Under the pieces are notes generated by a model that saw only the letters and a list, made by a program, of their open reading frames with translations, had not been told where the DNA came from and did not search any database. A program made the translations under genes and the position numbers. Source: a virus (Duplodnaviria > Caudoviricetes). From it: 64,000 nucleotides of DNA. Location of the stretch: the IMG/VR virus record IMGVR_UViG_3300032007_000017; one strand, 5' to 3'. Positions 9,829 through 62,854 of the stretch are shown piece by piece. Within the stretch, counting starts at the first letter, position 1. Every line of letters starts with the position of its first letter.

Positions 9829-9890
9829 TTAAAAACACCTCCAATTTTACTAAAGTGTTGAGCAGGTATAAACCTGCTCAACAGCTTTTA

Positions 9891-12800
9891 TTAGTCGGAT
9901 GCAAGTTTCTCCATAGCAGCCACAATAGTAGCAGTGGGAGAATTTGCCAAATCGGACATATCATCATCTCCAATCAGAGATCTAAGTCCATCAATGGCAT
10001 TCTTAGATTGTTCAGCTCTAGCTTTAGCAGCACGTTTTCTTGCATTACCAGCAGCCTTTTCAAGCTTCTCATAATCAATCTGAACGCCTTTCTGAGCAAG
10101 AGCCTTCTGAACTTCAGCCAATCCTTCCGTATTGGTAGCAATGGTAGCCAAGAGTTCAATGATTGCACCAAGGAATCTATCATACATAGCTTCCTGAGCG
10201 ACCATATTATAATTATTACCAACAGTAGAGACTGTATTGGAAGTATTGATACCATACTTACGAATGATATCATTAGCCTTAGCAGATCCACCTCTACCAA
10301 ATCCCTTATAACGTCTGACCATCATAAGATTCTTCTTACGGCCATTAGTCAGGTTTCGATATGTCGGCCCTAAACCAGGACCACCATGAGACAGATCTTG
10401 GTTATTGCCAGCATACATCTCTGTATGAGACATATTACCATTATTGGCTGTCTGCTTCCAGTTGTAATACATAATATCGCCAGGCTGAAGCTTATTAGTA
10501 TCGACAAGATCACGTCCATTATTAGTGTAAATAGTCTTGAAGTTACTATCCTTAGCCTGTTGAGTCGAACTCATGTAAGCCCAACCATTGACAGAATCAC
10601 CAGGTCTGATACCAAGAGCCTTCTTATAAGCCCAAGCAACAGTAGAAGCACAAGAACCAGAACCATTATCAGGATTTTGTTTGCTTCCTTCCTGAGAATA
10701 CTTCAACTGTCCCATCTTACTAGCCATGGCATCAACAATAGACTTTTGAGTACCATTACCAGTAGAAGGAGCAATTGCATAGTTTGATGTATCTCCAGTA
10801 GAAGTAGTATTTCCACTAATAGCTCCAGATACTTTATTCTTGACATTTCTAACCACATTCATCAGGCCAGAACCAAAGATCTTATCCATCAGTGCATTAG
10901 ACTGTTCCTGAGTCTGAGAGAGAATCTGGTCAGAGATTCTATTGCCAGAAGACTGCATACTATATCCACTAGACAGATCCACAGTAGTCTGAGAAAGAGT
11001 CTTATTGAGAATATAAGATGCTATATCAGAAATCTCGATAGATCCTGCACCAACTTTAGAAGTCTTCTTAATCAGGTCATAGCAACCTTGACGACGAGAA
11101 GCATACTTACCAAAGTTCTGCAAAGCAGTCTGATGAAGATTATCAAGAGTAAGAGACAATCCTGCACTCTTACAAGCATTAATCAGCTTGCTAGCAGAGC
11201 CATACTGATTTTGGAAGTCAGCACAGTAAAGGATTGCATTCTCTTCCGATACTCCTTGCTTCTTAATTGATTCGATATATCCATCAATATTCTGCATAGC
11301 AAGGACATCCTGGCAACGTTGACCAATAGGAGTAGAGATAAGTGCACTAATCTTCTTAGATTCGCTATCATTGACGATAATACGCTTATCCCAATACTTT
11401 CTATCCTTGGTAGTAATCTCTTTATAAAGAGCTTCACCAAGAATCTCTCTAGCCTGATCTGCACCCATATTATTGATAACCATCATCATCAAATCATGAG
11501 CACGACAGCCATGCCACTGAATCTTACCAATAGAGAGAGCACCATTATCGTTCTTATTGACAGCGCCATAACGGCCACCAGCCTCAAGCTGTTCCATCAT
11601 AGCATAAGAACGTTCAGCCATCTTAGATACTCTAATGGTATTTGCTTTTCCTCCACGGAACTTTCCGAAACGGAACTTAGAAGATCTAGCTTTACCAGCA
11701 GTAGGCATACCAACAGTAGTATCATTAAGAACCTTATTTGCCGGATACTTATAAGAAGAACCAGGCAGATCAGGATCTTCAGCAATGATATTACCTTGCT
11801 TATCAGTACCCATTGCAGTAATATAGTGATCACCAGATCCAAAAGGAGTACCATTCTGACCATTGGAATGTCCAAGTAAGAATGTAGGAACTCCAGCACG
11901 AATCTTCTTCATAAGATCTCGCTTATTAGAAGTCTGATATCCTCCAAAGAGATCAGTAAAGTAATCAGGAGAAACAGATCCATCAGAATTCTGGTATCCA
12001 GTAGCAAAGTTTGCAGCAGCCGCAAGACCATTACCACCACCAGACATCTTATTCATCAGATTTGCTGCAGCAACAGGACCGCATCCAGCTTCTCCAAAAG
12101 TAGAGTTACCAAACTTAAGTCCAGAGATTGCAGGATCATTCTGATAAATATGACCAAATCCTCCATTACGACGATCTTTCGAACGTCCTTTTCCATACTT
12201 ATTACCAACCTTATAAGTTCCATTGCCTTGGGATTCAAGGATATAGTCTTGAGATCCTTTAATTTCAAGGCCAAGCTTTATACCATCCCCTCTAGAGAGT
12301 TTTACATGCATGACTCCAGAACTATCTACCCATGCAGTTTTCTCAATAGAAGTAGTACCGCTTTGATTGATAATAGTGACTTTAAAACTACCTCCAGATT
12401 TAGGAGAAGGTTTACCAGAAGTAGTAGGAGTAGCTATATTATTGCCAGTAGATTTATTATACTGAGCAGCCATACTATAGCTACTAGCATCATCGATAGC
12501 ACCGCTCTTAACAGCACTATCAAACTTTGCATCTGTAGCAAAGGCAGGCCAATCAGAAATATCACCATTCCAACCAAAGAAACCGCAAATATATTCAAAC
12601 TGACCAGGAAGTTTCTTAGCACTAATCTCGACTTTAGCAGTATACTTTCCATCAGAAGTTTCATAAATACTTCCTCCGATAGAAGCACCACTGAAAGACA
12701 AAACGAGTCCAAGAACAGCTCCACCGATAAGAACAGGAAGTCCGATAGGAGCTCCAACTCCACTAGCGGTAAGACCAGCACCAGTTGCAGTAGCTGCAGC

Positions 12801-24212: not shown

Positions 24213-24257
24213 TCAACAAATTGATAAAGGACCGGCCAGTCCCGGTCCTTTATCTTT
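24213..24257 (+). repeat. 45-nt promoter plus hairpin element, copy 1
   Basis: 43/45 identical to 49674-49718; the two differences are paired with each other in the stem. Confidence 0.95.
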
Positions 24258-24444
24258 GACAAATAAGCATTAGGGTTATAATATCTTGACATGTTATGTC
24301 CTCCATTTATAAATATTTATATTTGAAGGACCTCCTATTCGAGTCAATAGAAGTGATAGTGGTATGACTGGCTACCACTATCACTTCTATTCATTCTTAT
24401 GGATCATATAAAAAAGAAAAACCGAGGGATTTCTCCCTCGGTTT
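24226..24444 (+). ncRNA. Candidate structured late RNA A: 5' hairpin, anti-SD region, 19-bp hairpin
   Basis: AACA-N6-TA at 24215-24226; hairpins 24223-24254 and 24346-24391 have complementary loops; 3' end uncertain. Confidence 0.5.
24419..24444 (-). terminator. Intrinsic terminator, possibly bidirectional
   Basis: 11-bp stem plus U tail. Confidence 0.8.
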
Positions 24445-49673: not shown

Positions 49674-49718
49674 TCAACAAATTGATAAAGGACCAGCCAG
49701 TCCTGGTCCTTTATCTTT
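49674..49718 (+). repeat. 45-nt promoter plus hairpin element, copy 2
   Basis: 43/45 identical to 24213-24257. Confidence 0.95.
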
Positions 49719-49828
49719 ATTCATAAGCTTGTCGACTTAAGCTCATGAATGATCCGATCGTCTAAACAAACCGGGATAGCTAAACGATCAGGAAGACGGG
49801 TAGCAGAAATGCTACCCGTCGTTCTATC
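49687..49828 (+). ncRNA. Candidate structured late RNA B with four consecutive stems
   Basis: AACA-N6-TA 49676-49687; stems 49684-49715, 49719-49750, 49753-49793 and 49795-49820 (GAAA loop); no ORF; the sheath gene has its own promoter downstream. Confidence 0.55.
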
Positions 49829-58482: not shown

Positions 58483-58585
58483 AATCTCACCTACTATCTT
58501 AATTATTGCACAGTTATAATATATTTTCAAATTGACTTTTAAAGATTACACTAACAGCAAATTATATTAGAAGGAGGATTTCAAT

Positions 58586-59581
58586 ATGGAATTCTATTAT
58601 CCTTTCATAGGCACCGAGCCTACAGAAGAAATTTCTGCTAAGAAGAATGCACTCGATGGTTATACAGAATTCGATACGTCATTCTTCGAAGATGATGGTG
58701 CGAAAATCGTCCCCTCTGAACAAGAACTCGAGCTTGCAGATAAGAATAATAAAGCTAAGAAAGCCCCTGAAAGACTTACCAAAGTCTCTCAAAAGGGTGG
58801 TCCTTTCGATGTACCAGTTCCTGTAGCATCTACAGAAGCTGTTGTAGATCCTATGACTGTACCTTATGCTGATTCTTATCGTAGAACTAATTCATGGCTT
58901 GAGCAGTCTGTTCTTCAGACGGATGTACTTGCTAGTGAAGTAAAAGAAGACTTGGATAAGATCCGTGCTTCCAATACCATGAAGTCTAAGTACACCTATA
59001 TCTCTAATCTTGCTGGTGTTCAGGCTAGTTTGATTGGTACGAAGATTCAGGCTATTCGTGAAATCAATAACTCTATCAACAAGGCTCATGAACTTGAGCT
59101 TAAGAGAGCTAAGGATATCAAGGATGCTCAGAAGGATCAGCAGAATGATGATTCTCGCATGATGGATATGTACAATGCCTTTATCAATTCTCCTATGGGC
59201 ATGTACAATAATGCTTTGAATATGCCGACTGTCCCTGAAGCGATGCTTGGTACGAATGGTTTAAACCCCACTATCCAGGGTGTATCAATTGCTCCGAACG
59301 CTGGTCTGTCTTCCAATCAGTTGTCTCCCGAGCAGCTTCGCATGAGAATGGAGGGCAACCCCAATATTGAAGAGGTTGTCATGTATGAACCTTCTACAGG
59401 TAGACGTTGGTTCCAGATTTTAGATAATTCGACAGGTCAACCTGTCCCCGGTATGCCTACAAGTGACGATTTCTTACTTTCGGATGTCACTATTGATGTC
59501 CGTAGTGGGACTGCTAAGAATCGTAACATTGACCGGGTTTGGAGGCTCGTAAACACCGAAAATACAGTTTACGAATATTGA
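58586..59581 (+). CDS. Hypothetical late protein
   Basis: 331 aa, AAGGAGG SD, late-type promoter 58553-58564. Confidence 0.8.
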   Translation: MEFYYPFIGTEPTEEISAKKNALDGYTEFDTSFFEDDGAKIVPSEQELELADKNNKAKKAPERLTKVSQKGGPFDVPVPVASTEAVVDPMTVPYADSYRRTNSWLEQSVLQTDVLASEVKEDLDKIRASNTMKSKYTYISNLAGVQASLIGTKIQAIREINNSINKAHELELKRAKDIKDAQKDQQNDDSRMMDMYNAFINSPMGMYNNALNMPTVPEAMLGTNGLNPTIQGVSIAPNAGLSSNQLSPEQLRMRMEGNPNIEEVVMYEPSTGRRWFQILDNSTGQPVPGMPTSDDFLLSDVTIDVRSGTAKNRNIDRVWRLVNTENTVYEY

Positions 59582-59586
59582 TGTGA

Positions 59587-59670
59587 AAATAAAAGGGGGA
59601 GAGCCCCGATTGTGGGCTCTCCCAAGAAAGAGGAAGTTCGATGCATCTCTATCGCATGGGCGCATCGATT
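59587..59670 (-). ncRNA. Candidate sRNA-4
   Basis: AGCA-N6-TA 59681-59670; 5' stem; CAUCGAACUUCCUCUUUCUU (anti-start/anti-SD); terminator 59623-59597 with U tail on the minus strand only. Confidence 0.45.
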
Positions 59671-59703
59671 AATTATATGCTATCAACTATATAAAAAATA
59701 AAT

Positions 59704-59728
59704 ATAAGAGGACTTTTTGTCCTCTTAT
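59704..59728. terminator. Bidirectional terminator-like hairpin inside the sRNA cluster
   Basis: ATAAGAGGAC/GTCCTCTTAT flanked by A and T runs. Confidence 0.7.
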
Positions 59729-59737
59729 TTCTTTGCT

Positions 59738-59830
59738 AAAACTAATTAGACAGTCATTATGACTGTCTAATTAGTACTATGGAGGAATCAATCAATGAAA
59801 ACCAAAAAGAAATATAGAAATTGTGGCTTT
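59738..59830 (-). ncRNA. Candidate sRNA-3
   Basis: AACT-N6-TA 59841-59830; UUUUCAUUGAUUGAUUCCUCCA; 16-17-bp terminal hairpin 59775-59741 plus U tail. Confidence 0.5.
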
Positions 59831-59844
59831 ACTTAATAGTTAGA

Positions 59845-59969
59845 TAGACTATATACAAGGGACTCGAAAGTCCCTTGTATATAGTTTTGAAAGAAGAAGT
59901 CAATCTGGGAAAAGTGTGGATAACATGTTGAAAAATCATAAGTTTCATCCAAAACCAAATAATGGTTTT
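59845..59969 (-). ncRNA. Candidate sRNA-2
   Basis: AACA-N7-TA 59981-59969; 5' hairpin AAAACCA/TGGTTTT; CU-rich body; 17-bp hairpin with UUCG loop on the minus strand. Confidence 0.45.
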
Positions 59970-59989
59970 ACTTTTTTTGTTATATGCAT

Positions 59990-60105
59990 AAAAAATAATA
60001 CGAGGGTCTACCAGCCCCCCGTATTACTGTATGTAGTCATATAAGAGGCCCATCTCACAAACCTCTTACTGAGTACATACTAATGTGGACGTATTTCAGC
60101 CCACC
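59990..60105 (-). ncRNA. Candidate structured sRNA-1
   Basis: AACA-N6-TG 60116-60105; three stems, all with G-U pairs that form only on the minus strand; terminator plus U tail. Confidence 0.55.
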
Positions 60106-60115
60106 ATTAGTATGT

Positions 60116-62854
60116 TCAGTTCGCATTAAAATCCCAAATTATATTATTGGTAGATTTATCAATATCAATACCATCAGATCTAAGAAGAATGATATCAGCA
60201 TTTGATACAATCATCTCAGAAGAATGTGAGATCATAATGCACTGCTCAGTTTCCATAAGATCCATGATATTATCCATCAATAAAGCAAATGCTGCTCTAT
60301 TAGGTTCATCAAGAGGATCATCAATTTCATCTACTTTAATGACATTATACTCAGTAGAAGAAATCTTCAAAAGAGCAAATGAGATAATCATGGATATCAT
60401 AGTCAACTGAGAGGAACTCATTGAAGATATATCATCATTCAAATATCCATTACCAATGCAAGGAATTCTAAACTCATTTTCATTGATAACGAATGGTTGA
60501 AGTTGATACTGTCCTCCAAATAGATAAGACAATAACTTATTGGAGAGTTTCAGTATATTACCCATATAGAGTTCCATAAATACTAGCTGGATGCCAGTAG
60601 TAGGGGATGAATAGAACTTGACTTTTTCATACTTCTTAATCTCAGTTTGATAAGACTCAAGAGATTTTTCATAATCTGCAATCTGTCCAAGCTTGTAAAC
60701 CAAATCATCTCGTTCTCTATTTTTATGAGAAACATCATTCTCATAAACTTTCAAACGAGTAACCTCTTCTGCTCTTCTAGCTTCATGATTACGAATGAAA
60801 TCTATCTGAGATTTATACTGATCAAGCTCATTCTTTGTAGAATCATAAAGTTGCATTGTTTGCAGTATCTGATCGACCTTGGGTATCAAATAATCGTTTA
60901 TTTGATGAATTCTGTCTTCTGATACTGCTAAAGCCCTTTGAACGTGTTCTACGATCCTTTGGTTCGCCTCAGAGTGCCTAAATAAGGCGCTGAGAGAAGC
61001 TTCAAGTTGAATTTTCATGTCGTAGAACTTTTTCATGCCTTCTTTCATTCCAGCAAGAGAAGCTAGCTTAGCTTCATACTTTTGAATATTTCCTACTATG
61101 ATTTGATATTCTTCAAAGTAATTGGCTAAGTCAATATATTGATAGATTCTATCAATATATTTCAATTCATCTCCTCCAAGAAGAGTCTCAAAGAACTCTG
61201 CTTTGGATTCGAATATTCCTCCATTTGGAAGTCTTGAAAGAATGGAATGATTCTTATCAATAGAACGAATGATCGTTCTAATGGCATTTAAGCAAGCATT
61301 ATGAACTTCTGCATGTTTAACCTCAGATTCATATTGATCTATTTGTGCTTTAAAAATATCATATGAATTGGTTAAGTCAGATAGAGTTTCTGCCGGATTA
61401 GTAGCAGCGGCTTTTACAGCATCTGATATAAAGAAGCATGAATCAATCTTACAACCACTAGGACGATTCTTTAACTTTTCTGCCAGCTTACGATTAGTAT
61501 CTGCTTCAGCAATTGCTGTTAGATACTTTTCGTTATACTGGTCTTTGGTATCAAGAACCGCCTGTTGTTTCGATGTATCAATAACAGAAGGCATGCCTAT
61601 ATAATTAATGGTAGCAAACTCATTGATACATTCTTGAATTGTATGATAGTCATACATAAACTTAAAATCTTCTACTAAGCGAGTAATCTCATGCACTGTC
61701 TCCAACGCAATAATATACTCAGCTTTTGTAAAAGAATTCGGATCAATACCTGTAACAGATATTGTCTGGGCTATCTGTGCCGCATCTTGTTTAGCACTAT
61801 TCAGATAGGATTCGACCTCATTATACTCATCAGACTTTAAAGAGGATAACTGATTTTCAATATCATCAATCTGTCCTTTGATAGATTGAATTTGATTTAT
61901 CAATCCATTATTAATAGATCTAATTCTCTCTATCTCAGACTTGAAATAGGTATTAGCAGCATAGTCTTTCTGAAGTTGCTCAGCCAATGCTTTTGCTTCC
62001 ACTTCAGGAATAAACATCATCTGCATACCATCTCGATGATAACCAAAAATCATCTCTTTAAGCTCTTTATTAAGCTTTCTGAGTTCAGATTCTTTGCTCT
62101 TATATGAAGTTTGAATAGAAGCATCGGGATCAATGTTTCTGATTTCTACATCAATCTCTGTAATGGTTCTTTTAACTTCATCAATGTTTCTTTGAATTTC
62201 ATTTGTCTCTCGTTCTACAGAATCTTTTAAAGCCTCTAAACTTGCTTTATCTCCAAGAGCTCCTAATCTAGTAGTGATACTAGACATAATAGCCTTAACA
62301 GCACTTACTTTCTTAGAAACTGTCTTGTAGATATCGTTATAGACTTCAAGAGATTCGATAATAGAATTAACAAACTTCTTTCTCTCAGCAGGCTTCTTAT
62401 AACCAAGACCTCTATCATCCATGGATAGTTTAGAGAGAGCAAAGAAATTAGGATCAAGCTTAAATTCAGAATACAAAATGTCTCGATAACTCGTTACATT
62501 CCCATTCTGATTCATCTCAATCATAACTCCATTATCATTAGACTTTGAGATAAATGCTTTAGTGGTTTCTCTTGTACCATTTGGTTTCAGTTCATGAAAG
62601 AACTGAATTAGATAGTTGTGTCCTTTGTGATAGACTCCTACTATTTTACTAGCAGATCTATCAGGAATAAATGCATCAGTACTATCTGGAAATAAACTTA
62701 ATGCATTCATAATAGTGGTCTTACCAGACCCATTGGTTCCTTTAATGACTTGGACTCTATGTGTAGCAAGACTAAAATCTATCCTGATATTATAGAGACC
62801 CATTCCATTATAGATACCAACGTAGTTATTCAGTTCAAGACTTGTAAATCTCAT
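60116..62854 (-). CDS. sbcC: SbcC/Rad50 (T4 gp46-like) SMC ATPase
   Basis: Walker A GTNGSGKT, long coiled coil, central CKIDSC, signature MSSSQ, Walker B/D-loop VDEIDDPLD, ISH. Confidence 0.9.
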   Translation of the reverse strand: MRFTSLELNNYVGIYNGMGLYNIRIDFSLATHRVQVIKGTNGSGKTTIMNALSLFPDSTDAFIPDRSASKIVGVYHKGHNYLIQFFHELKPNGTRETTKAFISKSNDNGVMIEMNQNGNVTSYRDILYSEFKLDPNFFALSKLSMDDRGLGYKKPAERKKFVNSIIESLEVYNDIYKTVSKKVSAVKAIMSSITTRLGALGDKASLEALKDSVERETNEIQRNIDEVKRTITEIDVEIRNIDPDASIQTSYKSKESELRKLNKELKEMIFGYHRDGMQMMFIPEVEAKALAEQLQKDYAANTYFKSEIERIRSINNGLINQIQSIKGQIDDIENQLSSLKSDEYNEVESYLNSAKQDAAQIAQTISVTGIDPNSFTKAEYIIALETVHEITRLVEDFKFMYDYHTIQECINEFATINYIGMPSVIDTSKQQAVLDTKDQYNEKYLTAIAEADTNRKLAEKLKNRPSGCKIDSCFFISDAVKAAATNPAETLSDLTNSYDIFKAQIDQYESEVKHAEVHNACLNAIRTIIRSIDKNHSILSRLPNGGIFESKAEFFETLLGGDELKYIDRIYQYIDLANYFEEYQIIVGNIQKYEAKLASLAGMKEGMKKFYDMKIQLEASLSALFRHSEANQRIVEHVQRALAVSEDRIHQINDYLIPKVDQILQTMQLYDSTKNELDQYKSQIDFIRNHEARRAEEVTRLKVYENDVSHKNRERDDLVYKLGQIADYEKSLESYQTEIKKYEKVKFYSSPTTGIQLVFMELYMGNILKLSNKLLSYLFGGQYQLQPFVINENEFRIPCIGNGYLNDDISSMSSSQLTMISMIISFALLKISSTEYNVIKVDEIDDPLDEPNRAAFALLMDNIMDLMETEQCIMISHSSEMIVSNADIILLRSDGIDIDKSTNNIIWDFNAN

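Follow-up and report, generated by a model that had tools for sequence, protein, structure and literature searches.

A gene-free gap downstream of sbcC in an uncultured AR9/PBS1-type jumbo phage as a possible row of small late RNA units

The window considered here is a stretch of 64,000 nucleotides (nt) from the virus record IMGVR_UViG_3300032007_000017, and its subject is a gap of 534 nt (59582-60115) between two convergent genes, an sbcC-like ATPase gene on the minus strand and a gene for a 331-residue protein on the plus strand. Since its layout recurs in two related phages, the gap probably contains between two and four genes for small structured RNAs. The wider proposal, a series of short late transcription units that encode no protein and are read from the sbcC strand, stands at about even chances. 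For the window genome alone, the best reading is a terminator zone. It is the comparison with two other phages, L062 (a contig in a Clostridia metagenome-assembled genome, SbcC 50% identical) and L160 (a 267.5-kb ENA metagenome contig), that moved the reading to RNA units, and the comparative data fit a row of late units better than a passive spacer. The anatomy of the gap, its lack of open reading frames (ORFs), its conservation and its covariation are observed directly.

The window belongs to a 178.5-kb IMG/VR record that is about 72% complete. Its best matches are the Bacillus phages AR9/PBS1 (30% identity for DNA polymerase and 24% for SbcC), and the source is a distant, uncultured jumbo phage of the AR9/PBS1 type. 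An earlier note on this DNA, made from its letters, had proposed that the gap encodes an array of four phage small RNAs, each with its own late-type promoter and its own hairpin terminator. Its starting point is sound: the gap is the largest in the window and the fifth largest in the 178-kb record, and it contains no ORF of at least 30 codons with a ribosome-binding site, only mini-ORFs of 9-29 codons. It is also the largest of the 20 convergent junctions in the record, whose median is about 47 nt. The stop codon of sbcC (TGA, 60118-60116) lies directly upstream, and both flanking genes have canonical late promoters and read into the gap. The four motif strings of the earlier note lie exactly at its coordinates, and its four hairpins exist, among them perfect 17-bp stems at 59885-59848 and 59775-59741 and a perfect 10-bp stem at 59623-59597. 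Three further hairpins had been missed (60115-60075, 60069-60042, and a bidirectional one at 59728-59704). The elements of the gap, with the two flanking genes, are as follows.

60116-62854, minus strand: sbcC-like ATPase gene, 912 residues (PHROG 77 at 8e-40, and Pfam SMC_N)
60105-60116, minus strand: P1, AACATACTAATG, a promoter-like AACA-N6-TG box with its putative start at the G at 60105
60075-60115, minus strand: H1, a 16-bp bulged hairpin overlapping P1 (folding energies -20.6 kcal for the minus and -16.5 for the plus strand)
60085-60104, minus strand: 5' hairpin of unit 1 (GUGGGC/GUCCAC), which folds in all three phages with changed pairs
60042-60069, minus strand: H2, middle hairpin of unit 1 (-12.7 kcal for the minus and -6.5 for the plus strand)
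59990-60027, minus strand: H3, predicted terminator of unit 1 and of sbcC, with a 12-bp stem, the loop GCUGGUAGA and a U tract
59969-59981, minus strand: P2, an AACA-N7-TA box about 10 nt after the U tract of H3, a weak candidate
59848-59885, minus strand: H4, a perfect stem of 17 bp whose loop reads UUCG on the minus strand, with no U tail on that strand and UUUU on the plus strand
59830-59841, minus strand: P3, AACTATTAAGTA, an AACT-N6-TA box
59776-59806, minus strand: unpaired CU-rich stretch of unit 3, UUUCAUUGAUUGAUUCCUCCAUAG
59741-59775, minus strand: H5, a perfect 17-bp hairpin followed by UUUUAG, so that its tail is only UUUU
59692-59728, minus strand: H6, a 10-bp bidirectional terminator with its stem at 59728-59704 and a U-rich tail
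59670-59681, minus strand: P4, an AGCA-N6-TA box, a weak candidate
59638-59668, minus strand: 5' hairpin of unit 4 (UCGAUGC/GCAUCGA)
59624-59637, minus strand: unpaired stretch of unit 4, CUUCCUCUUUCUU, directly after that hairpin
59586-59623, minus strand: H8, a GC-rich hairpin of 10 bp that has a U tract only on the minus strand and lies 15 nt from the stop of the 331-residue gene
58586-59581, plus strand: convergent gene for the 331-residue protein, with its own canonical late promoter at 58553

The window phage, L062 and L160 are about equidistant, because their coding DNA is 69-79% identical to one another; in L160, the SbcC, 331-residue and polymerase proteins are 53%, 63% and 62% identical to those of the window. 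The same junction is 552 nt long in L062 and 675 nt in L160, and both gaps are ORF-free on the sbcC strand. Thus, the search for the same architecture downstream of sbcC, which the earlier note had proposed, gave a positive result in both phages. A late-promoter-like box lies about 10 nt past the U tract of H3 in all three, and another follows the next terminator.

Unit 1 is the best supported of the candidate units and is a credible late RNA gene: its start box and 5' hairpin are conserved, and its terminator covaries. It would start near 60105 at the AACA-N6-TG box and end near 59990 at H3, giving a fully structured RNA of about 116 nt. Across the three phages, all 36 pair cells of the H3 stem are standard pairs and 10 of its 12 positions vary, many of them on both sides. 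The 9-nt loop is invariant, a U tract follows the stem in every copy, and each copy contains G-U pairs that would be mismatches on the opposite strand. Against L062, the H3 region gives a blastn E value of 1e-4. The 5' hairpin also changes in pairs, so the covariation that the earlier note had suggested looking for is present, and it is confined to unit 1: units 2-4 are unalignable. Within P1, AACA and TG are invariant in the three phages, whereas the six intervening positions differ (TACTAA, TCCTAT and TTTATT), and the box is followed by GG and then by the small hairpin. In L160 about 230 nt separate this box from the sbcC stop, and another hairpin with its own U tail precedes it; because of this copy, P1 is not merely the context of a stop codon. 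H1, which would form only in RNA that reads through from sbcC, is not kept in L062 or L160. In the window genome, the sequence of unit 1 would double as the 3' end of the sbcC message.

The promoter grammar used to judge the boxes was derived from the genome's own gene-proximal sites. AACA-N6-TA is enriched 4-fold before genes, with the extended form yC-AACA-yTTnAn-TAAT; 47 of its 103 sites fall between genes and 30 are found 15-65 nt ahead of a start, and the gene-proximal late consensus is AACA-N6-TAAT. In AR9, the late consensus is AACA-N6-T(A/G) (PMC5312081). P1 fits this AR9 form and scores 6.5 with an extended weight matrix, one that also takes in the AACT variant. AACT-N6-TA is the sole single-mismatch variant of the core that is raised before genes in this genome (9 of 104 sites in promoter position, with consensus-like flanks). 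P3, which has this form, scores 9.0 with the extended matrix and is the best promoter candidate of the gap in this genome; the equivalent place carries a canonical AACA-N6-TA in L062 (9.9) and AACT-N6-TA in L160 (7.1). At the position of P2, L160 has a canonical AACA-N6-TA and L062 an AACT-N6-TA. P4 scores 4.8-5.0. With the extended matrix, L062 and L160 each show three spaced boxes on the sbcC strand of the gap (scores 4.8-9.9). On the opposite strand, no box of L062 reaches 3, and L160 shows two, scoring 6.1 and 3.3.

Another class of promoter, TTACATATTAT-N6-G, agrees with the early consensus of AR9, AAATATATATTAT-N6-G, and, judged by this match, would be this phage's version of the AR9 early promoter, which is used by the virion RNA polymerase. 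The AR9-type character that the earlier note had assumed therefore holds for the phage as a whole, since late AACA-N6-TA sites and an early class are both present. TTACATATTAT-N6-G occurs about 26 times in the record, in most cases 13-60 nt ahead of a gene, for example at window coordinates 30269 (-), 64380 (-), 79199 (-), 83796 (-), 101195 (+) and 102812 (+). Within the gap, the best score of an early-promoter weight matrix is 3.8. Promoters of the σ70 type were also considered and rejected; in the gap they occur at the level of shuffled sequence, and this type of phage does not need them.

Unit 3 is likewise a credible late small-RNA gene, with the best promoter score here. From a start near 59830 at the AACT-N6-TA box, transcription would pass through H5 and stop at H6, yielding an RNA of about 140 nt that includes an unpaired CU-rich stretch. 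H6 is likely the true end of unit 3 as well as the terminator of the plus-strand gene. A resemblance of unit 3 to L062 that had been judged by eye proved no better than that of shuffled sequences and was discarded. Unit 2 (from 59969 to H4) and unit 4 (from 59670 to H8) would have the same layout with degenerate start signals, and because of these signals they may be weakly expressed, transcribed by read-through only, or dead. Consequently, the array of four in the earlier note is retained in part: units 1 and 3 are credible, while units 2 and 4 would be weakly promoted. The phage non-virion RNA polymerase (nvRNAP) would start at the boxes, and the RNAs are presumed to be stable. The units show no significant similarity to one another (a repeated word of 17 nt is probably due to chance), in keeping with the earlier view that their bodies are distinct.

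The gap folds far better than its shuffles on either strand (z = -13.8 for the minus and -11.8 for the plus strand), and each putative RNA folds with a z of -3.8 to -6.8. A stable, GC-containing stem with a run of U residues directly behind it, the hallmark of an intrinsic terminator, is present on the minus strand at H3, H6 and H8. U tails had been ascribed to the hairpins in general; H3 and H8 have them, the hairpin at 59885-59848 has none on the minus strand and that at 59775-59741 has UUUU only. Similarly, G-U pairs had been said to favor the minus strand, and this is true of the three sbcC-proximal hairpins, H1 to H3, which are 4-6 kcal stabler on that strand; the remaining hairpins are strand-symmetric. 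In L062, the gap folds to -219.6 vs -189.1 kcal on its two strands, an asymmetry that was set aside as largely compositional (z of -8.8 vs -13.9); the sbcC strand of that gap is G+T-rich. Throughout the genome there are 83 perfect hairpins of at least 9 bp in 16.3 kb of intergenic DNA (1 per 196 nt). The terminator-like hairpins of the record are unusually long and perfect, and many of their stems measure 13-19 bp; an A tract and a T tract flank many of them, which therefore can act in both directions.

The stems of H8 are identical at 20 of 20 positions in the window, L062 and L160, while its loops differ. The stem may be frozen since a hairpin that works on two strands cannot pass through G-U intermediates, while H3 covaries. 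H8 would stop minus-strand transcription before antisense entry into the 331-residue gene.

SbcC relatives exist at 98%, 69%, 59% and 54-57% identity. In addition, about 25 IMG/VR relatives, whose SbcC proteins are at most 41% identical, keep the position and orientation of the 331-residue gene (sbcC facing a gene of about 320 codons, then DNA polymerase). Their gaps span 37-843 nt and are nearly all strongly folded; the sequences cannot be aligned with the window gap and show no conservation with it. A hairpin hugging the stop of the 320-codon gene recurs in these distant relatives, with its T tract mostly on the sbcC strand. Among 18 non-redundant family gaps (7.3 kb), the extended matrix finds 11 hits of at least 7 on the sbcC strand, 8 of them directly after a hairpin, compared with 4 on the other strand, 1 of them after a hairpin; the expectation is 5.5 per strand. 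A search of distant relatives for the H3 loop with one mismatch allowed found matches only inside sbcC coding sequence, pattern scans for H3 and H8 in viral contigs found nothing related, and the gap DNA has no match in the phage collection. In L160, the interval 9860-10086 (-), from the sbcC stop to AACA-N6-TG, carries three CU-rich motifs and its own terminator at the end; on the other strand these motifs read as Shine-Dalgarno (SD) sequences with ORFs of 15-16 codons.

Several results weigh against a row of late units. As the earlier note had cautioned, all four boxes deviate from the commonest form: exact AACA-N6-TA is absent from the gap, the spacer and start being N6/TG in P1, N6/TA in P3 and P4, and N7 in P2. 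Scores with a strict weight matrix, built from 30 gene-proximal late promoters, are all at most 4.8 in the gap, and scores of at least 4 occur 415 times in 357 kb. Sites of the earlier note's motif class (at most 1 mismatch, or N5/N7 spacing) occur at a rate of 3.9 per 534 nt and strand over the whole genome, and of 5.1 between genes; with 4 such sites on its minus strand and 6 on its plus strand, the gap is at chance density. In promoter position, N7 spacing (1 of 103) and AGCA-N6-TA (1 of 161) show no excess, and AACA-N6-TG precedes genes at 1 of 77 sites, like the TT and TC controls. The element at -11 to -8 is AACA in P1 and P2, AACT in P3 and AGCA in P4. With AR9 nvRNAP, single substitutions at -11 to -8 abolish in vitro transcription, and that at -10 is the one relevant to the AGCA of P4 (PMC5449584); in vivo, however, 17 of 118 AR9 late starts deviate from the consensus (PMC5312081). 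Thus, where the earlier note gave every unit a late-type promoter, only two of the four appear credible as promoters in this genome: P1, by its presence in three lineages, and P3, as a variant in use. Furthermore, perfect hairpins are no denser in the gap (0.75 per 100 nt) than in convergent gaps (0.93), and so are ordinary. The conserved elements rest on three lineages only, alignment of the center of the gap (59971-59625) with L062 is no better than that of shuffled sequence, and the strand bias across the family, 11 vs 4, is modest. A search of Rfam, which the earlier note had suggested, returned no family at gathering threshold in the window or nine related loci; a permissive scan of 59000-60700 gave as its best match STnc400, at 29.6 bits vs a threshold of 80, which is noise.

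One alternative is that the gap is a passive buffer between convergent late genes, a stack of one-way and two-way terminators that prevents polymerase collision and antisense RNA, with boxes that are chance occurrences or relics and with no functional small RNA. This is the strongest of the alternatives, although it is unlikely. Both flanking genes enter the gap from canonical late promoters, hairpins are as dense as in other convergent gaps, motifs are no more frequent than chance, H3, H6 and H8 resemble intrinsic terminators, and the range of gap length in the family implies that most of the gap is dispensable. However, 18 of the 20 convergent junctions in this genome need 250 nt or less, with the small median given above. 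A buffer also fails to explain why same-strand boxes are kept in place in three lineages amid scrambled surroundings, or why the 9-nt loop of H3 is invariant.

The sbcC message might instead be the only RNA that enters the gap, with unit 1 as its structured, possibly processed 3' untranslated region and silence beyond H3. In this genome no terminator separates the sbcC stop from H3, which is consistent with this idea, as are the minus-strand preference of H1 to H3 and the fact that in L062 the conservation of P1 is contiguous with the conserved end of sbcC. Yet the box and 5' hairpin of L160, far past the stop and behind a separate U-tailed hairpin, are not accounted for, promoter-like boxes recur past H3, and the minus-only U tract of H8 is sensible only if minus-strand transcription arrives there. 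The idea is rather improbable.

A further possibility, and a quite improbable one, is that the gap contains the remains of lost small-gene cassettes, or tiny plus-strand ORFs, and that its hairpins are leftover terminators. Two mini-ORFs on the plus strand are preceded by SD sequences: GGAGG, 9 nt and an ATG with 13 codons at 59795-59836, and GAGG, 7 nt and an ATG with 17 codons at 59641-59694. In AR9, six small genes fill the stretch from sbcC to the DNA polymerase gene, and relatives sometimes have small ORFs at this junction. The mini-ORFs, however, differ in length and sequence from those of L062 and L160 and so are not conserved, the plus strand has no promoter-like site of at least 7, and the perfect 17-bp stems and conserved elements speak against decay. 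Finally, a site that acts as DNA, for instance in replication initiation, in packaging or as an array bound by proteins, is very improbable: the two perfect 17-bp palindromes, the identical H8 stems and the adjoining replication and repair genes would suit it, but intergenic DNA of this genome often contains perfect stems of 15-19 bp, H3 covaries as RNA with strand-specific G-U pairs, the gap has no iterons or significant direct repeats, and the extremes of cumulative GC skew fall at record positions 6.7 and 166 kb rather than at the gap (133 kb). Skew and repeats thus give no sign here of the origin that the earlier note had named as a competing explanation.

A row of late units also has parallels within the phage and its relatives. 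ORF-free late units are plausible because other parts of the genome also have canonical late promoters that no gene follows, and they have a precedent because AR9 makes late antisense RNAs. A 45-nt module occurs twice, at 24215-24260 (+) and 49676-49720 (+), and consists of a canonical late promoter, tcAACAAATTGATA, with a hairpin, AAGGACCgGCCAGTCCcGGTCCTT, immediately behind it; the copies differ by one compensatory change of G-C to A-T. The copy at 24215 occupies a convergent gap, has no plus-strand gene for 12 kb and is, because of this, a cleaner candidate for an ORF-free late unit than the sbcC gap. Other large gaps of the record have canonical late promoters (matrix scores 9-14), all on the minus strand, at record positions 157884, 158760, 158977, 159649 and 45615. 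Those from 157884 to 159649 correspond to window coordinates 84352-86117, past the window end, and 45615 precedes the window start. Behind these promoters come 130-1000 nt without a same-strand gene start, with several strong hairpins, and they are further candidate non-coding late units.

The convergent gene itself is the lone plus-strand gene within a long block of minus-strand genes, and its GC content is 0.42-0.47 vs 0.33 in its surroundings. Its DNA is 71% identical to that of L062. Its protein has no Pfam, PHROG or PDB match, and its Atlas model is poor.

What the RNAs might do is suggested mainly by their unpaired parts. The invariant loop of H3, GCUGGUAGA, suggests a specific reader, for which no candidate was found; that a protein or an RNA reads it is speculative. 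UGGUAGA within this loop (60004-60016, minus strand) resembles the common D-loop sequence of tRNAs, probably by coincidence; ARAGORN finds no tRNA or tmRNA in the window. It is equally speculative that CU-rich stretches mask ribosome-binding sites. In a target search with the unpaired stretches, only unit 3 beat shuffled controls, and this control flatters the result because shuffling also destroys generic CCUCC. The best target of unit 3 (-27.1 kcal) is the start region of the gene at record 11927-12625; this single candidate, compared with its ortholog in a single relative, L062, showed no co-variation of seed and target. Trans-acting small RNAs of the RsaE/RoxS type in Firmicutes have C/U-rich seeds that cover the SD sequence. 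Units 3 and 4 resemble these in having unpaired CU-rich stretches (UUCCUCC and CUUCCUCUUUCUU) between a 5' hairpin and a terminator. Unlike RsaE/RoxS, the gap units have no alignable conserved seed, and on the plus strand the stretch of unit 3 also reads as an SD sequence (GGAGG), 9 nt, and the ATG of the 13-codon ORF.

Among known systems, the late units of AR9 (Lavysh et al. 2017, PMC5312081; Sokolova et al. 2017, PMC5449584) share the promoter grammar of this phage. Seven AR9 late starts are antisense and drive no protein, for example that at 75478 on the minus strand (PMC5312081). These protein-less RNAs lie opposite genes, and no tandem ORF-free row of them is described, whereas the sbcC gap would be such a row; and where this phage has a gap, AR9 has its six small protein genes. 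In addition, the candidate boxes here depart from the AR9 consensus (TG, N7, AACT and AGCA). Phage small RNAs found by differential RNA sequencing in phiKZ (PMC8244752), by ONT-cappable-seq in 201phi2-1 (PMC11512511), and in PA5oct (PMC7318152) are likewise ORF-free and intergenic, with a phage promoter and a hairpin terminator. They are single loci, mapped at the RNA level in Pseudomonas phages, in contrast to a row of 3-4 units put forward here through sequence comparison. For phiKZ, one 75-nt small RNA was predicted and a northern blot did not confirm it (PMC8244752).

Regulatory RNAs of lytic phages are barely known; the literature searched reports a few single loci, and none in AR9-type phages. 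A tentative and rather doubtful extension is that one clade of uncultured AR9-like jumbo phages keeps, after sbcC, a cassette of 3-4 late small RNAs made by the non-canonical phage polymerase, with the H3 loop GCUGGUAGA read by a phage or host factor and the later CU-rich stretches blocking ribosome-binding sites late in infection. If the row is real, the gap would provide natural test templates for the phage polymerase, because promoter variants with TG, AACT and N7 are present. A row of small RNAs read by a uracil-dependent, sigma-less phage polymerase would then add a post-transcriptional layer to the switch from early to late expression.

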